DNA of 22,685 nucleotides from IMG/VR virus record IMGVR_UViG_2778260997_000018; one strand, given 5' to 3'. Below, one piece after another: positions 1,449-13,118 of this stretch. The translations under genes and the position numbers were made by a program. This DNA is from a virus. Taxonomy: Duplodnaviria; Heunggongvirae; Uroviricota; Caudoviricetes. The notes beneath the pieces are model-generated. The model ran no database searches. It had not been told where the DNA came from and saw only the letters and a list, made by a program, of their open reading frames with translations. Position 1 is the stretch's first letter, and every line of letters starts with the position of its first letter.

Positions 1449-2018
1449 CTATTTAACATACTTGACTGTTAAACTTATAATTTTACCAATTATTTCAATG
1501 TCTTCTATCTTACATTCGAAGGCTCTGTTTCCACCCTCGACGAAGATTCTTCCACCGGGTAAACGAGTAATGTCACGGATCGTTATTTCGCCATCAATAC
1601 TTATTACCCATTTACCATCACGTATATCATCAAATTCCTTATCACAAATAAATTCAGAATTATTATCTGTGATTACAAAAAGATTCTTGAATGCCGACGG
1701 TAGAAATTCTCTATCGAAAATATAAAAACCGTCTTCACACAAGGCCCCATCAGATAATACATATTTAGCAACTTCCATAGTATTTGTATTACCTGAAGTT
1801 TGCTTTGAACCATGCCCGGTTGTGAGCCAATTAAGCGAGGTGCCTGTTTCAAGGGCGCACTGGATTACCCATTCTGCTGGGAATGAGTCACGCATGTAGC
1901 GTGTGGCGAGTGTACTTTTAGAGATTCCTAAATGATCGCACAACGCCTGTCGAGTCTTGAATCCATAAGCTTCTACCATGCGCTCTATGGCGCCTCGTCC
2001 GCCTTTCTCCAAATTCAT
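1449..2018 (-). CDS. cI: Immunity repressor, coliphage 186 CI-type (N-terminal HTH, C-terminal oligomerisation domain)
   Basis: About 190 aa protein, N-terminal HTH-like segment (GFKTRQALCDHLGISKSTLATRYMR). Sits between int and the divergent apl/cII genes, as in 186. ATG at 2018 has GGAG 5 nt upstream; the ORF track starts at an in-frame GTG at 2024. Confidence 0.8.
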   Translation of the reverse strand: MNLEKGGRGAIERMVEAYGFKTRQALCDHLGISKSTLATRYMRDSFPAEWVIQCALETGTSLNWLTTGHGSKQTSGNTNTMEVAKYVLSDGALCEDGFYIFDREFLPSAFKNLFVITDNNSEFICDKEFDDIRDGKWVISIDGEITIRDITRLPGGRIFVEGGNRAFECKIEDIEIIGKIISLTVKYVK

Positions 2019-2028
2019 GGTCACTCCA

Positions 2029-3948: not shown

Positions 3949-4802
3949 GCACCATCCTGAAATGGACGGGAAATAAAACCGCCATTATGTCCGAACTGAA
4001 AAAACACCTTCCTGCTGGCCCGCGACTGGTTGAACCTTTCGCGGGTTCCTGTGCTGTGATGATGGAGACGGATTACCCCAGCTATCTGGTTGCGGATATT
4101 AATCCTGATTTAATCAACCTCTATAAAAAGGTTGCTGCTGATTGCGAGGCGTTTATATCTCGTGCCAGAGCTTTATTTGAGGAAGCAAACAGGGAGTTGG
4201 CTTATTACAACATAAGACAGGAGTTTAATTACTCCACTGAAATTACTGATTTCATGAAAGCGGTATATTTCCTGTATCTCAATCGTCATGGTTACCGTGG
4301 GTTATGTCGTTATAACAAGAGCGGGCATTTCAACATTCCATACGGTAATTATAAAAATCCGTATTTCCCTGAAAAAGAAATTCGCGCATTTGCAGAGAAA
4401 GCCCAGCAAGCAACGTTTATCTGCGCCAGCTTTGATGAAACGCTGGCGATGTTGAAGGCGGGGGATGTGGTGTATTGCGATCCGCCTTATGACGGTACGT
4501 TTTCCGGCTATCACGCTGACGGCTTTACTGAAGATGACCAGTATCACCTGGCATCCGTTCTTGAACATCGGTCATCAGAAGGACATCCGGTCATTGTTTC
4601 TAACAGTGACACATCCCTGATCCGTTCGCTGTATCGCAATTTTACTCACCACTATATCAAGGTAAAACGCAGCATCGGCGTAGCAGCTGGTGAGAGTAAA
4701 TCAGCAACAGAAATCATTGCTGTTTCCGGGCCGCGCTGCTGGGTGGGATTTGATTATTCGCGTGGCGTGGATAGTTCTGCCGTGTACGGAGTACGTGCAT
4801 GA
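3945..4802 (+). CDS. dam: DNA adenine methyltransferase (Dam-like, D12 class N6-adenine MTase)
   Basis: Motif I-like FAGSCAV (SAM-binding), catalytic DPPY (CDPPYDG) and a Dam-like N-terminus (ILKWTGNK). ATG 3945 with GGAGG (3935-3939); ORF-track start 3885 is an upstream extension. Stop overlaps the A start (ATGA). Confidence 0.85.
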
Positions 4803-7213
4803 GCCATGCCGATATGAGCAACTGCTGCGGCTTTAAAGAGGCTGCCGCATCGTTCTCATGGAACAGCCCGAAAAAGGCCATTAACCCTTATCTGGACCCG
4901 GCGGAAGTTGCGCCGGTTTCTGCGTTTTCAAACCTGATCACTCTGTACGCTGCCGATAACGAGCAGGAACAACTGCGCCGCGAGGCACTGAGTGATCAGG
5001 TCTGGGAGCGTTATTTCTTTAATGAATCCCGTGATCCTGTCCAACGCGAAATAGAGCAGGATAAGCTCATTAGCCGGGCAAAGTTGGCGCATGAGCAGCA
5101 GCGTTTTAACCCGGACATGGTCATTCTGGCAGACGTCAGCGCCCAGCCCTCCCATATCAGCAAGCCGCTGATGCAACGTATTGAATACTTCAGCAGCCTG
5201 GGCAGGCCAAAGGCTTATTCCCGCTATTTACGTGAGACGATTAAGCCATGTCTGGAACGACTGGAGCATGTACGCGACAGCCAGCTATCTGCATCTTTTC
5301 GTTTTATGGCAAGCCATGTAGGGCTGGACGGCCTGCTGATTCTGCCTGAAATGAGTCAGGATCAGGTGAAACGCCTGTCTACCCTTGTCGCTGCGCATAT
5401 GAGCATGTGCCTTGATGCAGCTTGTGGTGATTTGTATGCCACCGATGACGTTAAGCCAGAAGAAATCCGCAAGACATGGGAAAAGGTGGCAGCGGAAACC
5501 CTGCGTCTGGATGTCATCCCGCCTGTGTTTGAGCAACTCCGTCGGAAAAGAAACCGCCGTAAACCCGTGCCCTATGAACTCATTCCGGGTTCGCTGGCGC
5601 GTATGTTGTGCGCCGACTGGTGGTACCGGAAATTATGGAAAATGCGTTGCGAATGGCGGGAAGAGCAGTTGCGTGCTGTCTGCCTGGTCAGCAAAAAAGC
5701 ATCTCCCTATGTCAGCTATGAAGCCGTGATGCATAAACGTGAGCAGCGCCGCAAGTCACTGGAGTTTTTCCGTTCTCATGAACTGGTGAACGAAGAGGGC
5801 GACACGCTGGATATGGAAGACGTGGTAAACGCCAGCAGCAGCAACCCGGCGCACCGCCGCAATGAGATGATGGCCTGTGTTAAAGGTCTGGAGCTTATCG
5901 CGGAAATGCGCGGTGACTGCGCCGTTTTCTACACCATTACCTGTCCGTCACGTTTCCATTCCACGCTCAATAACGGCAGACCAAACCCAACCTGGACAAA
6001 TGCGACGGTAAGACAAAGCAGCGATTATCTGGTCGGCATGTTTGCTGCATTTCGTAAGGCGATGCACAAAGCCGGGTTGCGCTGGTATGGCGTGCGGGTG
6101 GCTGAGCCGCATCATGACGGTACAGTTCACTGGCACCTGTTGTGTTTCATGCGCAAAAAAGACCGCCGCGCCATTACTGCATTGTTGCGTAAGTTTGCCA
6201 TCCGTGAAGACCGCGAGGAACTGGGTAATAACACTGGTCCACGCTTTAAATCTGAGCTGATAAACCCGCGCAAAGGAACGCCGACAAGCTACATCGCGAA
6301 ATACATCAGTAAGAACATTGACGGGCGTGGTCTGGCTGGCGAGATCAGCAAGGAAACGGGTAAATCCATGCGTGATAACGCTGAATACGTTAATGCCTGG
6401 GCGTCTCTGCATCGTGTTCAGCAATTCCGCTTCTTTGGTATTCCGGGACGTCAGGCTTACCGTGAACTTCGCTTGCTGGCTGGTCAGGCGGCAAGGCAAC
6501 AGGGTGACAAAAAAGCAGGTGCGCCGGTACTGGATAACCCGCGTCTTGATGCCATTCTGGCTGCTGCTGATGCTGGTTGTTTTGCCACCTACATCATGAA
6601 GCAGGGCGGCGTACTGGTTCCCCGCAAATATCACCTCATCAGAACCGCTTATGAAATCAACGAAGAGCCAACCGCCTATGGCGATCACGGTATTCGTATT
6701 TATGGCATCTGGTCACCCATTGCAGAGGGCAAGATCTGCACTCATGCAGTGAAGTGGAAAATGGTTCGTAAGGCCGTTGACGTTCAGGAGGCGGCAGCCG
6801 ACCAGGGCGCTTGCGCCCCTTGGACTCGTGGCAATAACTGTCCCCTTGCTGAAAATTTGAACCAACAAGGGAAAGACAAATCAGCTGATGGGGATACCAG
6901 GACGGACATTACCCGCATGGATGACAAGGCGTTGCACGATTACCTGCACAGTATGAGCAAAAAAGAGCGCCGGGAACTAGCTGCAAGGTTACGCCTGGTG
7001 AAACCGAAACGGCGTAAAGACTACAAACAGCGAATTACAGACCATCAGCGACAGCAGCTCGTCTATGAACTGAAGTCCAGAGGATTTGATGGCAGCGAGA
7101 AAGAGGTCGATTTACTCCTTCGCGGCGGCAGTATTCCGTCAGGAGCAGGCCTGCGTATCTTCTATCGGAACCAGCGTTTGCAGGAAGATGATAAGTGGCG
7201 AAACCTGTATTAA
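4799..7213 (+). CDS. A: Replication initiation endonuclease (P2 gpA / 186 A family, rolling-circle initiator)
   Basis: 804 aa ORF in the position of P2 A; contains a conserved HxH-type block (VHWHLLCF) and the Tyr-rich region [13 protein letters not shown] typical of the gpA nicking-joining active site. Start not certain (in-frame ATGs at 4799 and 4814). Confidence 0.8.
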
Positions 7214-7305
7214 TTACGCGGGTTAACAATTCGTGCTCTTAATAATACCAGGCATATCAGGCTGATGAACGTAAAAAAACGTTTTACATCAGTAAGATTA
7301 TTATA

Positions 7306-7325
7306 TACTGTAAATATAAACAGTG
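7306..7325. promoter_or_regulatory. LexA (SOS) box
   Basis: TACTGTAAATATAAACAGTG matches the E. coli LexA consensus TACTGT-(AT)4-ACAGTA (CTGT-N8-ACAG). Lies about 40 bp upstream of a small ORF and the DinI-like gene, overlapping a probable promoter (TTTACA at 7283-7288, TATACT at 7304-7309). Confidence 0.7.
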
Positions 7326-7366
7326 GTTATACATACAGTATTGCTTGTGGTGTCATAGGAGGAAAG

Positions 7367-7555
7367 ATGCAGGACTATTTTTTGGAGTCTTTGAAGCTCC
7401 AGCGCATTGATTTTTTTCTTAAACTTGTAGCGGCTAGTGAGTGTAGTGATGAAGAGAAGGGGCTGGCTTTGCAGTGGGTTTCTGAACTGACAGATGAACT
7501 CATGGCAAAAATCAGAACCCACGAATACAACCGCTCAATGGATGTCATCAGCTGA
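7367..7555 (+). CDS. Hypothetical small protein (62 aa), first gene of the SOS-regulated operon
   Basis: ATG 7367 with AGGAGG (7357-7362) 4 nt upstream; the ORF-track start 7265 would include the LexA box itself, so the shorter start is preferred. Confidence 0.45.
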   Translation: MQDYFLESLKLQRIDFFLKLVAASECSDEEKGLALQWVSELTDELMAKIRTHEYNRSMDVIS

Positions 7556-7565
7556 GGTGACTTTT

Positions 7566-7799
7566 ATGCGCATTGAAATAATGATCGATAAAGAGCAGAA
7601 GATTAGCCAGTCTACCCTGGACGCCCTTGAATCCGAGCTTTACCGCAATCTGCGCCCCCTGTATCCAAAAACGGTAATTCGCATCCGCAAAGGTAGCTCT
7701 AACGGTGTGGAACTGACCGGACTGCAACTGGACGAAGAAAGGAAGCAAGTGATGAAAATTATGCAGAAGGTGTGGGAAGACGACAGCTGGCTGCATTAA
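7566..7799 (+). CDS. DinI-like protein (possible Tum-type SOS-inducible antirepressor)
   Basis: 77 aa beginning MRIEIMIDK...LESELYRNL...IRIRKGSSNGVELTGLQLDEERKQVMKIMQKVWEDDSW, closely resembling E. coli DinI (MRIEVTIAK...WESADDWF). GAGG 7 nt upstream of the ATG. Downstream of the LexA box; located at the right genome end like tum in 186. Confidence 0.75.
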   Translation: MRIEIMIDKEQKISQSTLDALESELYRNLRPLYPKTVIRIRKGSSNGVELTGLQLDEERKQVMKIMQKVWEDDSWLH

Positions 7800-7921
7800 G
7801 AAACGTTGCTGGCGTCTGAACTTGCTTCTGGCGTCAGCAAGGTTGAACAACGAGCTGTGCGAGGCGTTAGTTGATATAGTATCAATATATAAAAGGTTTC
7901 TCGAAGTTTTAAGGTAAGGTT

Positions 7922-8641
7922 ATGACAACTATTAACAAGCATGGGTTATCTAGAACAATTCCTGAACCTGTAAAACTGGAGGTAAGGCAGCGCTGTGGCT
8001 TCGGTTGCGTTGTTTGTGCTTCTCCCATTGTTGAGTATGAGCATGTAATTCCCACATACGCTGATGCAAAGGAGCACTCACCAAATGCAATAGCACTACT
8101 TTGTCCTACGTGCCATGCGAAAGTAACGAAACGTCTTTACTCTAAAGAGAAAATAATTAAAGCAATGGAATCTCCTGCAGCCTTACAAAAAGGGAATGTG
8201 GCCGATATATTGGACTTTTCTGATAGGCATCCAACAATAATATTTGGTGGTGCGACGTTTGAATCCTGTACTGTACCAATAATGTTTCAAAATGAGCCAT
8301 TGTTAACCATTGAAAAAGAAAATAATGCTTTTCTTATTTCGGGTAAATTTTACGATAGTCAAGGTATTGTTAATCTTGAATTAATTAAGAATGAGTGGGT
8401 TTGTAGTGCAAGGCATTGGGATGTTCAGGTTGTCGGTCCTAGAATAACTATTATAGAAAAAAGGAAAGGTCCTCGTTTAATTATTAAAGTTGATGCGCCT
8501 GAAAGATTGATTGTGGAAAGATTAGATATGTTGGTTAAGGGGACTCGGATTGTAGGAGACGAACACAAGCTAAGAGTAGGTCCACATCAATTTCACAACT
8601 GTGGAGTTTCAAATTGCAATATTGGTTTCTGCTTTGGCTAA
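7922..8641 (+). CDS. HNH-nuclease domain protein with ~170 aa C-terminal domain of unknown function (cargo)
   Basis: N-terminus has the complete HNH signature: CGFGCVVC (C-x2-C) ... EYEHVIP (E-x-H-[IV]-x-P) ... NAIALLCPTCH (N-x-x-x-L-C-x2-C-H). AT-rich codon usage unlike the phage backbone. Confidence 0.7.
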   Translation: MTTINKHGLSRTIPEPVKLEVRQRCGFGCVVCASPIVEYEHVIPTYADAKEHSPNAIALLCPTCHAKVTKRLYSKEKIIKAMESPAALQKGNVADILDFSDRHPTIIFGGATFESCTVPIMFQNEPLLTIEKENNAFLISGKFYDSQGIVNLELIKNEWVCSARHWDVQVVGPRITIIEKRKGPRLIIKVDAPERLIVERLDMLVKGTRIVGDEHKLRVGPHQFHNCGVSNCNIGFCFG

Positions 8642-8754
8642 CTGGAGGTTGGAAAAAGACCATTTCCTATAAGCTGAGTATTTCGTACATTTTTGCCAAC
8701 GCATGTCTATGCCGCATGAAATCGCATGATCGTTTGAGGATCGTTTTTGCTGAT

Positions 8755-8780
8755 GCCCGCCAGAGCTGGCGGGCTTTTGC
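8755..8780 (+). terminator. Rho-independent terminator candidate
   Basis: Stem GCCCGCC (8755-8761) / GGCGGGC (8768-8774), 6 nt loop, then TTTT (8775-8778). Confidence 0.5.
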
Positions 8781-8823
8781 TTGTGTCATGCAGGTGCATG
8801 AAAACCACTACACAAAGCGGGCA

Positions 8824-8842
8824 GGCGTGGCGGGGATACGAG
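8824..8842. other. Candidate cos (cohesive end) site of the prophage
   Basis: GGCGTGGCGGGGATACGAG: the first 13 nt match my recollection of the 19-nt cohesive end of 186/P2-type phages (GGCG[T/A]GGCGGGGAAAGCA...). The position between the right-end accessory genes and the portal gene is where cos lies in P2/186 prophages. Confidence 0.35.
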
Positions 8843-8897
8843 CGCGCGCTATGTGGTATAGGCCTTAATTTAGTATGATTCAAGAGTGTCGGGATCT

Positions 8898-8926
8898 TTG
8901 CGCTGATCAGTCCTAAGTTATATGAT
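8898..8926 (+). promoter_or_regulatory. Candidate sigma70 promoter for the GHKL/STAS operon
   Basis: -35 TTGCGC (8898-8903), 17 nt spacer, -10 TATGAT (8921-8926), about 30 bp upstream of ATG 8956. Confidence 0.35.
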
Positions 8927-8955
8927 AAGAAAAATGCATAAAAAAGGTTCGGTTC

Positions 8956-9930
8956 ATGGGGTTAGGATTAAAAGACGCTATTGTGCATACCGCTGCGTTT
9001 CATCAAAAGGAAACTAATGAATTGCAATTGCCAAACAACCATTGGCATCCTGGTTTTATCACTGTCTTAGCAGCTTACGTGAATCATCACAAAATTACCG
9101 AAGATAACTGCGTTTTGTCATGCCCTGACTATATGCGAGCTATCAATTTACATGGTGCTTTATGGGGCGAGGATCAGTATCAACAGGAACGTGTAAATGT
9201 TGGAAGAAATTACAGTTTGGTTACAGCATTAACCAATGTTGAAGCTGTTGACGTTGCCACTGGTAGTATTAACAGTTGTGTAAGGCAGTTAACATTCCCT
9301 GATCGTGATCCGAGAGATTATCCCAAGGGACTTACAGATCTAACTCATGTTATAGGTGAGCTTCACGATAACGTTTGGTCGCATGGAAAATCAACGGGTT
9401 TTTCTTTTGCACAACGTTCGGCTGTACCCCACACACAAAGAAAAGAGCACTATTTAGAATTTTCTTTGGCGGACTGTGGGTTAGGATTTCTCCGAGAATT
9501 GCGGCGAGCTGGTATACCCGGAATTGAGACTCACCAGGATGCGATCGCATGGTGTATTCAAGAGGGACATTCATCTAAGCATGCTGATTTGCAGGATGAT
9601 TGGGCACAGCAACTTCCCCAGGATTTTATTGGGGGTAGTATGTTTGGTCACGGGGTTTCGGTCAAAGAAAAAGATAATAATCATCAAGGGCTTGGGTTAT
9701 ATCACTTGATGAAATTGATAAAAACATATAATGGGGAATTGCAACTGGCTTCAGGAAATGTATGCTTAGAAGCAATAGGTGATGAAGTGAGCTATACTGA
9801 ATTACGTACTAAATGGCCGGGTGTAGCAATTTCTTGCCGTTTTAAGATTCATGAACTGGCAGTCGATAAAGATAGCGAAGAAAATGACCCTCAGCTTATG
9901 GAAATAATGCGGGCGTTAGGAGGAGAGTAA
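8956..9930 (+). CDS. GHKL-superfamily ATPase/kinase-like protein (HATPase_c-like C-terminal domain; ~130 aa N-terminal domain of unknown function)
   Basis: Bergerat-fold motifs in order and correct spacing: N-box GELHDNVWSHG (aa 134-144; 9355-9387), G1 box ADCGLGF (aa 172-178; D-x-G-x-G), G2 box GLGLY (aa 245-249). Resembles RsbW/SpoIIAB-type serine kinases. AT-rich; stop overlaps the next start. Confidence 0.7.
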   Translation: MGLGLKDAIVHTAAFHQKETNELQLPNNHWHPGFITVLAAYVNHHKITEDNCVLSCPDYMRAINLHGALWGEDQYQQERVNVGRNYSLVTALTNVEAVDVATGSINSCVRQLTFPDRDPRDYPKGLTDLTHVIGELHDNVWSHGKSTGFSFAQRSAVPHTQRKEHYLEFSLADCGLGFLRELRRAGIPGIETHQDAIAWCIQEGHSSKHADLQDDWAQQLPQDFIGGSMFGHGVSVKEKDNNHQGLGLYHLMKLIKTYNGELQLASGNVCLEAIGDEVSYTELRTKWPGVAISCRFKIHELAVDKDSEENDPQLMEIMRALGGE

Positions 9931-10268
9931 TGAACAAAATCGCATACAAGTTACCCGAGGGTGACCTGGCTTCGCGCAATCAGGCTATCCCCCAACGACA
10001 CAAGATTGAAGGGTTCATTAAAGAAGGGTATACCGTAGATTTGGACCTGAGCGGTGTTTATTCAATTTCAGAATCATACTCTGATGAAATCTTTGGTGTT
10101 TTGGTAGTGAAATTCGGTGTAACCAAAGTTTTGAGTCAGGTTAAGGTTCGCAATGCATCCCCTTCAATTTTAAAAAGTATTGCAAAAGTGATCCAACGTC
10201 GTAGCAATGAAGTAGCATCAAAAAAGGTTCATTCCGTTGGATTTGATGGTTTATACGCCGTTTGTTAA
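9930..10268 (+). CDS. STAS-like small protein (anti-sigma-factor-antagonist-like / DUF4325-like), partner of the GHKL protein
   Basis: 112 aa. Segment VDLDLSGVYSISESYSDEIFGVL resembles the STAS/SpoIIAA core (LDLSGV-x-F-x-DSSG). ATG overlaps the upstream stop (TAATG) with GGAGGA 7 nt upstream, indicating translational coupling. Confidence 0.6.
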   Translation: MNKIAYKLPEGDLASRNQAIPQRHKIEGFIKEGYTVDLDLSGVYSISESYSDEIFGVLVVKFGVTKVLSQVKVRNASPSILKSIAKVIQRRSNEVASKKVHSVGFDGLYAVC

Positions 10269-10314: not shown

Positions 10315-11352
10315 TTATTCCTGAGCACCTAAAACATAGTCATCAAAACGTATTACTTCTGCACCCACCCATTCGTTTAGTTCATGTAGTCGCTTCTGTA
10401 GTGGCATCAGTTCATTGCGGACAAATACACGACTCGCTTTCTCTACATCCCCAAACCCCCCAACATTATTCGGCATAATCCCCATCATCTGTGGCGGAAC
10501 ACGATGCGCGGCCATCATGTCATCACGACTCACGTTCTTGATGTTCAGAAATTCATCTTTCGCCGCGACTTCTGATAACGGGATAATCTGAAGTCCGTCC
10601 TTTTTGCCGTTAGGCGAGTACATAAACAGATTGCGGAAGTTACCTGGTCCTTTGGCGCTTTTCATTGCATTGCGGAGGTTGTTTACATCCTCCTGGTTTT
10701 GTGCGGCGTCGGTCATGTACATGATGAAGCCTGCATGACTGCCGTTAATGTAATACTTCCGGCGGAACAGCGTGGCGGACTCGTTGAGCAGGGCTGACGG
10801 AATGGCAGAAAGATAACCGGGCAGGCCGTAGATCTCCTGGTTGATGTCCGGTTCCATCAGATGAAAAATGCTGCCTTTCGTGAACTGATACGGCTGGGTT
10901 GTCATACCGTATTGCACAAACCAGTAGGTATCCAGGTCTAACCCGCGTCGGGTGTATTTTGCCAGAGCAGGCTCAAGGGCGATAACTTCACCGAAGCGGT
11001 TCGTGCGTTTCTCTAGGTAGGCGTTACCAAATACCAGATAGTCCTGCACAAAACGTGAAAAAGCCTGCTGGCTGAGCAGCGGGTGAGGGATGTAGGTACT
11101 GGTCAGAATGTTGCATTTCACCGCAATTGGTGAGCTGTGATGCACGGCGGCGCGGAAGGTTCGTGCCAGTCCGTCAAAGCTGACGGGCGGCTCATACCAG
11201 CGATCCATCTGTACGCATTCCACATAGTCCAGCAGTTCACGGCGGTCCAGAACAGGAACGGGATCGCCAAAGCTGAATGCTTCGGCTGAAGTTTGGCTTT
11301 TATGCTTGAGCTGATTCGTCGCCGCAGCGCGGTTTTTCTTACTCTTTCCCAT
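10315..11352 (-). CDS. Q: Portal protein (P2 gpQ family)
   Basis: 345 aa; length, sequence character and position (leftmost late gene, convergent with the cargo, upstream partner of the terminase) match P2 Q. ATG at 11352 overlaps the P stop (TGATG); the ORF track starts one codon earlier at TTG. Confidence 0.9.
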   Translation of the reverse strand: MGKSKKNRAAATNQLKHKSQTSAEAFSFGDPVPVLDRRELLDYVECVQMDRWYEPPVSFDGLARTFRAAVHHSSPIAVKCNILTSTYIPHPLLSQQAFSRFVQDYLVFGNAYLEKRTNRFGEVIALEPALAKYTRRGLDLDTYWFVQYGMTTQPYQFTKGSIFHLMEPDINQEIYGLPGYLSAIPSALLNESATLFRRKYYINGSHAGFIMYMTDAAQNQEDVNNLRNAMKSAKGPGNFRNLFMYSPNGKKDGLQIIPLSEVAAKDEFLNIKNVSRDDMMAAHRVPPQMMGIMPNNVGGFGDVEKASRVFVRNELMPLQKRLHELNEWVGAEVIRFDDYVLGAQE

Positions 11353-13118
11353 CAAAAAATCTCCACAATATTGCTGGTATTGGCGGACTCGCCCTGCAGC
11401 GGTTCATTAAACAGTGCGTGCATTGTTGCCCAGGCCAGATCGGCGTGGCTGGCTTCTTCGCTGCGGCTGGCTTCATAGGTCGGGCGGTTGCCGCTGGCAG
11501 TGGTGGCGCGACGGATTGCCATAAAGGACTGCGCTATGTCGGTGTGCCCGGCGTCAAACTCCAGGCGGCGGTGACTGATAATGTCGTAGGCCTTGAGTAC
11601 CAGAGCGTTTTTAACGTTGGGGTTGTAGACAAACTCCCGGACGGCAGGAAAAAACGCTTTCACGTTCTCGTAAACCCCGTGACCAACGCCGGTTGAGTCG
11701 ATGCCGATATAGGTCACGTTGTACTGTTCGGTCAGTTTTTTGATGGCGTCAGCCTGGGCGCGAAAGTCCATCCCGCGCCACTGGTGACGCTCAAGAATGC
11801 GGAACTTGCCGCCCGGCACGGCTGGCGGTGCCACCACCACGCATCCGGCACTGTCGCCGTTCTGCGTACCTTTCGCCGGGTCATAACCGATCCACACTTC
11901 GCGCCAGCCAAACGGGCGCAGTGCCAGTGCATGAAAGTCGGTCCAGACTTCCCAGCTGTCCACCATGCACGCCTGCAGCTCGCTGAGCGGGAACACGGAC
12001 GCGAGATCGTCCACGAACTCGCACATCAGCAGGTTCTGGTATTCGTCCGGGCTGTACTCCATGCGTAGCTGGTCGAGGTCGAACAGGTTACAGCCGCCGC
12101 GCACCGCATCTTCCACGGTGACTATCTGGCGGTATTGCCCGTCTGCGCACAGCAGGCCGGGGGCCAGATTGCTGTGGGACAGGTCGATGTCCACCTTATC
12201 GGCTTTGTTGCGCCCACGGTTGAACAGCGCACCGGACCAGAACGGATAAGCACTGTGTGTCAGACTGGATGGCGTGGAAAAATAGGTCTGTCGCCATTTT
12301 TTGTGAATAGCCATACCGGAAGCCACTTTGCGCAGCTCCTGGAATTTCGGTATCCAGAAATATTCATCCAGATACAGGTTGCCGTGGTAACTCTGGGCCG
12401 TGCGGGCATTGGTGCCGAGGAAGTAAAGCGTGGCCCCGTTGGGAAGCACCATCGGATCGCCTTTCAGTTCCACATCCACTTCTTTGGCGAAGTCGATGAT
12501 GTACTGCTTAAAGACGTGAGCCTGTGCCTTACTGGCAGAAAGGAAAATCTGGTTACGTCCGGTAAGCAGGGCGTCAATCAGGGCTTCACGGGCAAAGTAA
12601 AAGGTCGCGCCGATCTGGCGTGACTTCAGCAGGTTGCGGATGCGGTTGGTTTTTCCGGCTTCCCACCAGTGGCGCTGGTAGTTGAACATGGAGGAATGGA
12701 AGATTTCTTCCAGTTTCTCTATCTGTTCATCGGTGAAAACATTCTTTTCCGGCTGACGGCGCGGGCCTTTGTTGCGGTTGGCGACGTTAGGGTTTAAGTC
12801 GGCTTCGTTGCCGCCATTGTTAAACTTGCCGATCCGCGCGTGGCGCTCCGACTGGCGCGCCAGCAGGTCAATTTCTTTGAAATCTTTCCCTTCTTTGTGC
12901 TCCTTCATAATGAGCTGGCAGTAACGTGCGGCGGTGGTGAGCTGCATCTGATCCAGCGGCCCATAGTCACCCCACTTGTCGCGTTTCTTCCAGCTGTGAA
13001 CGGTTGCAACTTTCTCGCCCAGCATTTCAGCAATGCGGGCTACGCGGTATCCCTGAAAGTACAGCAGCATGGCCTGCCGACGGGGATCGAGATCTGCGGG
13101 TGTCAGTGTGGTGTTCAT
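11352..13118 (-). CDS. P: Terminase large subunit (P2 gpP family ATPase/nuclease)
   Basis: 588 aa (P2 P about 590 aa), start ATG at 13118. Contains a Walker A-like GATFYF and acidic nuclease motifs. Divergent from the O-N-M-L operon as in P2. Confidence 0.9.
   Translation of the reverse strand: MNTTLTPADLDPRRQAMLLYFQGYRVARIAEMLGEKVATVHSWKKRDKWGDYGPLDQMQLTTAARYCQLIMKEHKEGKDFKEIDLLARQSERHARIGKFNNGGNEADLNPNVANRNKGPRRQPEKNVFTDEQIEKLEEIFHSSMFNYQRHWWEAGKTNRIRNLLKSRQIGATFYFAREALIDALLTGRNQIFLSASKAQAHVFKQYIIDFAKEVDVELKGDPMVLPNGATLYFLGTNARTAQSYHGNLYLDEYFWIPKFQELRKVASGMAIHKKWRQTYFSTPSSLTHSAYPFWSGALFNRGRNKADKVDIDLSHSNLAPGLLCADGQYRQIVTVEDAVRGGCNLFDLDQLRMEYSPDEYQNLLMCEFVDDLASVFPLSELQACMVDSWEVWTDFHALALRPFGWREVWIGYDPAKGTQNGDSAGCVVVAPPAVPGGKFRILERHQWRGMDFRAQADAIKKLTEQYNVTYIGIDSTGVGHGVYENVKAFFPAVREFVYNPNVKNALVLKAYDIISHRRLEFDAGHTDIAQSFMAIRRATTASGNRPTYEASRSEEASHADLAWATMHALFNEPLQGESANTSNIVEIF

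Follow-up and report, generated by a model that had tools for sequence, protein, structure and literature searches.

What is the function of the short segment at positions 7283-7799 of this prophage, in which a LexA (SOS) box precedes two small open reading frames (ORFs)? An initial annotation, made from the DNA alone, regarded it as the likely induction switch of the prophage, under SOS control and in the position of the coliphage 186 antirepressor gene tum. The analysis described below indicates that the segment is very probably the SOS operon of a Fels-2/DuoHS-type prophage, in which a LexA-repressed pair of genes, tumA-tumB, encodes an antirepressor of CI (TumA) and a DinI-family protein (TumB). 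Fels-2 and PSP3 are already known to have tum split into tumA and tumB in this way.

Location of the SOS operon in the prophage

The window, by which is meant the whole 22.7-kb stretch of DNA analysed (22,685 nucleotides), covers the left portion and the centre of a P2/186-like (Peduoviridae, Fels-2/DuoHS-type) prophage whose int, cI, cII, A, portal, terminase and capsid ORFs are all intact (Table 1). The SOS module is located between gene A and the portal gene, an order shared with 186, PSP3, Fels-2 and DuoHS, and three cargo genes lie 3' of it, before the ORFs of portal and terminase size. As the 186 record places the SOS operon p95-tum-orf97 between A and the cos/portal end of the genome, the proposed equivalence in position to 186 tum is borne out.

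Table 1. Features of the SOS operon and its surroundings, in window coordinates.
Feature	Position	Strand	Basis or remark
Large ORF in integrase position	1-1131	minus	Synteny with DuoHS
cI, 186-type immunity repressor, inferred target of TumA	1449-2024	minus	Start probably 2018, following the E. coli HS annotation
apl-like and CII (CP76) genes	between cI and gene A	plus	
Replication gene A (gpA)	4799-7213	plus	Pfam Phage_GPA, E=4.8e-127
TTTACA, -35-like hexamer of the promoter that corresponds to 186 p95	7283-7288	plus	Putative; 17 bp upstream of TACTGT
-10 hexamer TACTGT, the left arm of LexA box 1	7306-7311	plus	Homology to 186 p95
LexA (SOS) box 1, TACTGTAAATATAAACAGTG	7306-7325	plus	17/20 to consensus, CTG-N10-CAG
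LexA box 2, CAGTGGTTATACATACAGTA, overlapping box 1	7321-7340	plus	Putative; 5 mismatches to consensus, GTG for CTG
Shine-Dalgarno (SD) sequence AGGAGG of tumA	7357-7362	plus	4 nt upstream of ATG 7367
tumA, 62-aa antirepressor (Fels-2 STM2728, DuoHS tum ECHS_RS04495)	7367-7555	plus	Identity and homology
SD sequence GAGG of tumB, overlapping the tumA stop codon	7554-7557	plus	
tumB, 77-aa DinI-family protein	7566-7799	plus	Pfam DinI, E=6.6e-23
Stable hairpin after tumB, without U-tract	7806-7840	plus	Fold of 7797-7880
ORFs of portal and terminase size	10315-13118	minus	Assigned by synteny with DuoHS

A probable LexA-controlled promoter with a double operator

The layout of the putative tum promoter matches that of annotated 186 p95, in which a -35 element TTCACA is separated by 18 bp from a -10 element TACTGT that forms the left arm of the LexA site. 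An alternative -10 hexamer, TATACT at 7304-7309, likewise overlaps LexA box 1, and the motif cgTTTTACAt is retained in all Fels-2-type loci when these are aligned on the LexA box. A generic scan for sigma-70 promoters and terminators called neither of these two -10 hexamers, and the tum promoter escaped it because TACTGT matches TATAAT at three of six positions only.

The near-consensus LexA box over a promoter-like region, which had been noted initially, withstood closer analysis. Box 1 deviates from the 20-mer consensus at three positions and is the sole match at ≤3 mismatches in the window, while none of 100 shuffled sequences gave any match to the full 20-mer. The bare CTGT-N8-ACAG core is weak evidence, being expected 0.34 times per window, which is not significant. 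Of 240 related viral loci, 237 have a LexA box with ≤4 mismatches upstream of the Tum N-domain (78/80 of the Fels-2 type, 80/80 of the 186 type and 79/80 of the PSP3 type). In a set of 48 loci, each from a different bacterial species, nearly all have a box with ≤5 mismatches at a distance of 224-292 bp upstream of the start of the DinI domain. The position of the box is thus kept across both fused and split forms of tum, and its offset is fixed despite divergence of the flanks and of the protein encoded downstream, to ∼20% identity. In Fels-2 and DuoHS box 1 is identical to that described here.

The single LexA box implied by the initial annotation does not describe the whole operator, which by sequence is a double box spanning 7306-7340. 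The Fels-2-type promoters share a conserved ACAGT immediately 3' of box 1, and this element forms a degenerate second box; the 16-bp cores of the two boxes, at 7308-7323 and 7323-7338, have G7323 in common. The canonical CTG is absent from box 2. The second box was found in 68 of 78 Fels-2-type loci, compared with 0/80 loci of the 186 type and 0/79 of the PSP3 type. A regulatory RNA structure was considered as the source of the conserved ACAGT and rejected: the RNA of the 5' untranslated region (UTR) folds no better than shuffled sequences and Rfam returned nothing in the window. A role at the DNA level, as a second LexA box, is therefore favoured.

A blastn search with positions 7300-7345 against plasmids returned 971 records, of which 753 match at 80-90% identity. 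The two records that were inspected are both Col-type plasmids, in which the match lies ∼45 bp upstream of a colicin/cloacin-like bacteriocin gene. Over 42 bp these operators are 84-86% identical to the one described here, and in both the second box is degenerate and has one base pair in common with the first; the plasmid version drives a toxin-lysis operon, in contrast to the antirepressor operon of the prophage. In colicin operons the two SOS boxes are described as overlapping (Lu & Chak 1996, as cited in PMC2994835); they bind two LexA dimers and confer tight, delayed de-repression (PMC2994835). The operator is, as far as the alignments indicate, a colicin-type double overlapping SOS box that is confined to Fels-2-type tum promoters. 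By analogy, we infer that two LexA dimers would bind the tum operator, resulting in tight cooperative repression and late firing.

TumA resembles the N-terminal half of 186 Tum

The 62-aa ORF predicted downstream of the box is preceded by an SD sequence (Table 1). A longer, 96-aa reading from ATG 7265 was rejected, as it starts upstream of the promoter and its coding is not conserved in relatives. The 62-residue product is identical at 61 positions both to Fels-2 STM2728 and to the product of DuoHS tum. The protein has no match in Pfam, NCBIfam, PADLOC or PDB sequence searches, belongs to PHROG 698 ('unknown function'), and is annotated as 'hypothetical protein' or sometimes 'levan regulatory protein' in the records and database entries inspected.

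BLASTP did not align the 62-aa protein with 186 Tum or PSP3 TumA, nor PSP3 TumA with 186 Tum, and homology to the Tum N-domain was therefore established with profiles and an intermediate sequence. Among the 48 species-level loci there are three types of Tum N-domain/TumA, named here after Fels-2, PSP3 and 186. An hhalign comparison of the Fels-2-type and 186-type N-domains gave E=8.7e-5 with 60% probability, co-linear from residue 1, and the 186-type and PSP3-type profiles matched at 1.5e-5. The locus from Mixta (L029) is intermediate, matching the Fels-2 type at 1e-13 and the 186 type at 1.3e-7 (98% and 94% probability, respectively). The 186-type N-domain itself occurs both fused to the DinI-like part and split from it (split in L026, L027 and L031). 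Together, these profile matches support the view that TumA is homologous to the N-terminal part of 186 Tum, the relationship that the initial annotation had proposed to check by alignment. AlphaFold2 predicts a two-helix hairpin for TumA (H2-23 and H28-61; mean pLDDT 91.5).

Deletion of the equivalent gene abolishes induction of DuoHS

The first ORF of a near-identical module has been deleted in the E. coli HS prophage DuoHS. The Phollow paper (Nat Microbiol 2025, PMC12055606) reports that Δtum and lexA(Ind-) each abolish induction by mitomycin C, with no lysis and no viral foci. DuoHS tum is in the same place, between gene A and the portal gene, and the DuoHS module has 97% nucleotide identity to that of the window. 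The LexA boxes and promoter are identical, as are TumB, CI (189/189) and CII, while gpA is 98% identical; TumA (61/62) differs by T51S, and the leader by a base or two. The cargo after tumB differs, comprising hypothetical proteins of 243 and 463 aa in HS compared with HNH-like and ATPase/STAS-like genes in the window.

The primers used to construct the deletion, NHR24 and NHR28, map to 7347-7369 and 7553-7575 of the window. The Δtum allele joins the ATG at 7367-7369 to the TGA at 7553-7555 and so removes exactly the 62-aa ORF, in frame, keeping the tumA stop codon, the tumB SD sequence and the whole of tumB. Because this deletion removes just the 62-aa ORF and blocks induction, the antirepressor is the small ORF and not the DinI-like gene. 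The initial proposal of a Tum-type antirepressor within the module thus holds for TumA, on the basis of its homology and the DuoHS deletion, but not for the DinI-like gene. The two genetic experiments that had been suggested for this locus, deletion of the module and mitomycin C treatment of a lexA(Ind-) strain, correspond to those reported for DuoHS, and their outcome, along with the position of the module and the 186-type CI, supports its role as the induction switch. It should be noted that lexA(Ind-) blocks the whole SOS response, and LexA action at this operator is not thereby proven. The DuoHS deletion may also lower TumB expression through lost translational coupling; in the passages of PMC12055606 that were searched complementation of Δtum is not mentioned.

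Evidence from relatives points in the same direction. Lemire et al. (PMC3121763) describe a split tum in both Fels-2 and PSP3, with the antirepressor activity carried by the upstream gene, and the PSP3 record describes tumA as 'similar to 5' end 186 tum; UV induction of prophage'.

The second gene, tumB, encodes a member of the DinI family

The second gene had been described as DinI-like, consistent with a Pfam DinI (PF06183) score of 81.3 bits against a cut-off of 24.2, spanning profile positions 1-63 of 63. The score against the NCBIfam DinI equivalog NF007893, 42.7 bits, is below the cut-off of 111, and identity to E. coli DinI is 28% (PDB 1GHH, E=2.7e-6). TumB is, on these comparisons, a phage paralogue and not chromosomal dinI. 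The protein is 41-42% identical to residues 71-145 of 186 Tum, the alignment beginning with the internal GTG codon from which 'truncated Tum' is annotated to be translated. Identity is 100% (77/77) to both Fels-2 STM2726.1 and its DuoHS counterpart, and 78% to PSP3 TumB. According to the 186 record the C-terminal, DinI-like part of Tum is also made separately and 'modulates SOS induction'. Family membership, together with the 186 annotation, makes it most likely that TumB acts on RecA filaments and through them modulates the SOS signal. The DuoHS Δtum result shows that TumB is not sufficient for induction.

The sequence 3' of tumB (7797-7880) folds into a hairpin with a minimum free energy of -29.6 kcal/mol (z=-2.57), which, unlike 186 t95a, is not a canonical intrinsic terminator. 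The hairpin lies inside a block kept to ∼7870 in phages with different downstream cargo, and possibly acts as a partial terminator or RNA stabiliser. A further hairpin across the tumA-tumB junction (7544-7561), called by the generic scan, was dropped as it is not conserved in relatives. The downstream gene for a 239-aa HNH-like protein, considered as a counterpart of 186 orf97 or Fels-2 STM2726, displays no similarity to either, and is therefore regarded as variable cargo outside the conserved SOS operon.

TumA type tracks the N-terminal domain of CI

The repressor of the window consists of the Pfam domains Phage_CI_repr (residues 10-73) and Phage_CI_C (84-182) and is 33% identical to 186 CI (PDB 2FJR, E=2.6e-31), while its score against Peptidase_S24 is below threshold (16.3 vs 23.3 bits). 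The initial description of the module as lying next to a 186-type CI is thus correct as to type but not as to adjacency, cI being ∼5.3 kb away. The 186 record annotates Tum as inhibiting DNA binding by CI, and Tum is reported to sequester the repressor (PMC7708051). A literature search returned no report on which CI domain Tum binds.

Covariation of TumA with the whole of CI was rejected, as the CI of Fels-2 is only 46% identical to that of the window despite 98% identity in TumA; the domains of CI were therefore analysed separately. In Fels-2 the N-terminal domain of CI is conserved while the C-terminal domain is divergent. Similarly, 70 viral loci with 100%-identical TumA contain 41 distinct CI sequences, in which the N-terminal domain is 67-100% and the C-terminal domain 26-100% identical to that of the window. 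Across the three Tum types, clusters of the CI N-terminal domain match the type of Tum N-domain in 207 of 210 loci (L182, L209 and L283 are discordant); the C-terminal domain, which forms 25 clusters over the same loci, does not follow Tum type. The 186-type and PSP3-type loci share a common backbone (median identity to 186 of 91% vs 88% for gpA and 97% vs 93% for CII), yet between them Tum type and CI N-terminal domain switch together, which speaks against linkage by lineage alone. Descent, as opposed to contact, could still account for part of the covariation, since the N-terminal domain of CI is tied to its operators and may follow the phage lineage. These sequence data suggest that TumA binds the N-terminal DNA-binding domain of CI.

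Proposed mechanism and alternative explanations

In the repressed state host LexA would occupy both boxes of the operator. Since these extend over the -10 region and the probable start of transcription, tumA-tumB would be silent. After DNA damage, activation of RecA would lead to self-cleavage of LexA and transcription of the operon, and TumA, a small helical hairpin, would accumulate. By analogy with the N-terminal half of 186 Tum, to which it is homologous, TumA would bind the 186-type CI non-covalently and stop it from binding its operators. The covariation described above points to the N-terminal helix-turn-helix domain of the repressor as the site of contact. The early lytic promoter would thereby be de-repressed. 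TumB is the counterpart of the separately translated C-terminal product of 186 tum.

The rival that deserves most attention, although it is improbable, is that TumB, alone or with TumA, is the real inducer, either hyper-activating or stabilising RecA filaments or binding CI, and that the 62-aa ORF is accessory or serves the expression of TumB. The DinI-like part of 186 Tum is both joined to the antirepressor and made separately; TumB is also more conserved than TumA across phage types, and the overlap of the tumB SD sequence with the tumA stop codon means that deletion of tumA might alter translation of TumB. The DuoHS mutant, however, retains that stop codon, the SD sequence and an entire tumB and is still non-inducible (PMC12055606), and in PSP3 it is the upstream gene that was reported as the antirepressor (PMC3121763). 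Furthermore, it is the type of TumA, not that of TumB, that tracks the CI N-terminal domain: PSP3-type loci mostly encode a Fels-2-like TumB (median 79% identity to that of the window), but their TumA and CI N-terminal domain are of other types.

A role for TumA as the inducer would also be mistaken if the module were an SOS-regulated moron that contributes to host or prophage fitness, for example through tuning of the SOS response by a DinI-like protein, with no part in the choice between lysis and lysogeny and in a prophage that is perhaps defective. In the related Salmonella prophage BTP5 tum is strongly expressed, yet no infectious phage could be detected (PMC7067206), and the window covers just part of the present prophage. 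Nevertheless, the identity of CI, CII, TumB and the operator to those of inducible DuoHS, the 98% identity of gpA and the intact structural, replication and immunity ORFs noted above render this explanation very improbable. Finally, the LexA-box-like sequence might be a chance palindrome or the site of another regulator, the operon being controlled in some other way. The frequency expected for the CTGT-N8-ACAG core alone and the failure of the generic scan to call a promoter would fit such a view, but the absence of the full 20-mer from shuffled sequences, its fixed offset in 237 of 240 loci despite divergent flanks and the 42-bp operator in common with LexA-controlled colicin genes leave it with a negligible chance of being correct.

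Relationship to known systems and implications

The system is already known from 186, PSP3, Fels-2 and DuoHS, and because its biology is established in these phages the locus does not add a new one. The practical value of the analysis lies in the annotation of TumA. Of 5426 complete E. coli genomes, 1125 (about one in five) carry prophages similar to that of the window, and the module decides when such prophages leave lysogeny after DNA damage, which bears on gene transfer and on the release of phage triggered by antibiotics. Small additions are the double operator and the link between TumA type and the CI N-terminal domain, neither of which was found stated in the literature searched; they provide cheap, testable hypotheses on the induction threshold and the specificity of the antirepressor. 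A more tentative reading, to which we give somewhat under an even chance, is that Fels-2-type tum promoters acquired the colicin double operator or share ancestry with it, that induction is consequently late and of high threshold, and that TumA recognises a class of CI N-terminal domains instead of a single immunity type. If this were the case, one TumA could de-repress co-resident Fels-2-type prophages with different CI C-terminal domains, and possibly different immunities, leading to coordinated cross-induction in polylysogens.

For the split tum of Fels-2, PMC3121763 cites Bunny et al. 2002. The operon of this phage has the same double LexA box as well as the near-identical TumA and identical TumB noted above. 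A further likeness is apparent in the GfoA/GftA systems of the Gifsy and Fels-1 prophages, where a LexA-repressed operon encodes a small antirepressor and a dinI homologue, and the repressor is inactivated by being bound rather than cleaved (PMC3121763). The order of the two genes there is reversed relative to tumA-tumB, and the likeness is one of operon layout.

In PSP3, as in the window, gene A is followed by a LexA box and the split pair of genes. PSP3 TumA is of another sequence type, with ∼20% identity to that of the window; the promoter has a single LexA box, and the N-terminal domain of PSP3 CI is duplicated and belongs to another class. The 186 p95-tum operon also shares the genome position, the LexA box over the -10 element, an N-terminal antirepressor with a DinI-like part and a 186-type CI as target. 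In 186, however, both parts are fused in a protein of 146 aa with internal starts, whereas here they are encoded by two genes, and the single LexA box of 186, with orf97 following a canonical partial terminator, contrasts with the double box and unrelated cargo of the present operon.

Stable hairpin and variable cargo downstream of tumB

The region immediately 3' of tumB, the gene for the DinI-family protein of the SOS module, contains a stable hairpin, and the computed fold of positions 7797-7880 has an energy of -29.6 kcal/mol (z=-2.6). The hairpin lies within a block that is retained among phages whose downstream cargo differs. It is not a canonical terminator, in contrast to t95a, the partial terminator of the coliphage 186 SOS operon. 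Conservation stops near position 7870, and related phages carry other genes in the slot after tumB. Here the variable slot, which extends to the portal gene, holds three cargo genes. Searches of the three encoded proteins against the PADLOC defence models returned no convincing match, the top one being DrmA-like (E=2.3e-6, to the 112-aa STAS-like protein). The trio may make up an uncharacterised cassette with a defence or accessory role, into which transcription from the SOS promoter possibly reads through.

Features of the tum region, the cargo slot and the CI gene in the window
Feature	Position	Strand	Size	Remarks
CI repressor gene	1449-2024	-		
tumA with upstream in-frame stretch	7265-7555	+	84-106 aa in many database entries	
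Stable hairpin	7806-7840	+	11-bp stem	Directly 3' of tumB, without a U-tract
HNH-motif protein	within 7922-10268	+	239 aa	PHROG 6544, labelled unknown function
324-aa protein	within 7922-10268	+	324 aa	Weak histidine-kinase/HSP90-type ATPase match
STAS-like DUF4325 protein	within 7922-10268	+	112 aa	Overlaps the 324-aa gene

Mosaic repressors and discordant Tum/CI pairs

The CI repressor, compared between the window and the related loci L060-L299, shows strong mosaicism. Among loci whose TumA is identical, the CI C-terminal domains fall into 14 clusters at the 60% identity level. The N-terminal HTH domain is duplicated in 10 of the 70 Fels-2-type CIs and in 64 of the 72 of PSP3 type. The type of the Tum N-domain and the class of the CI N-terminal domain are mismatched in three viral contigs (L182, L209 and L283); one example pairs a PSP3-type CI domain with a 186-type Tum. 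These contigs may represent recombinants with altered inducibility.

Distribution and annotation of the tum module

Among 5426 complete E. coli genomes, 1079 carry the module at a coverage of at least 80%, some of them in as many as three copies, and in seven places it is plasmid-borne. Its multicopy occurrence shows that cells with several Fels-2-type prophages of one TumA type exist. In databases tumA is often entered as a longer protein beginning at in-frame codons upstream of the promoter; the conserved Shine-Dalgarno sequence and start codon support a length of 62 aa. Other entries name this small gene 'levan regulatory protein'.
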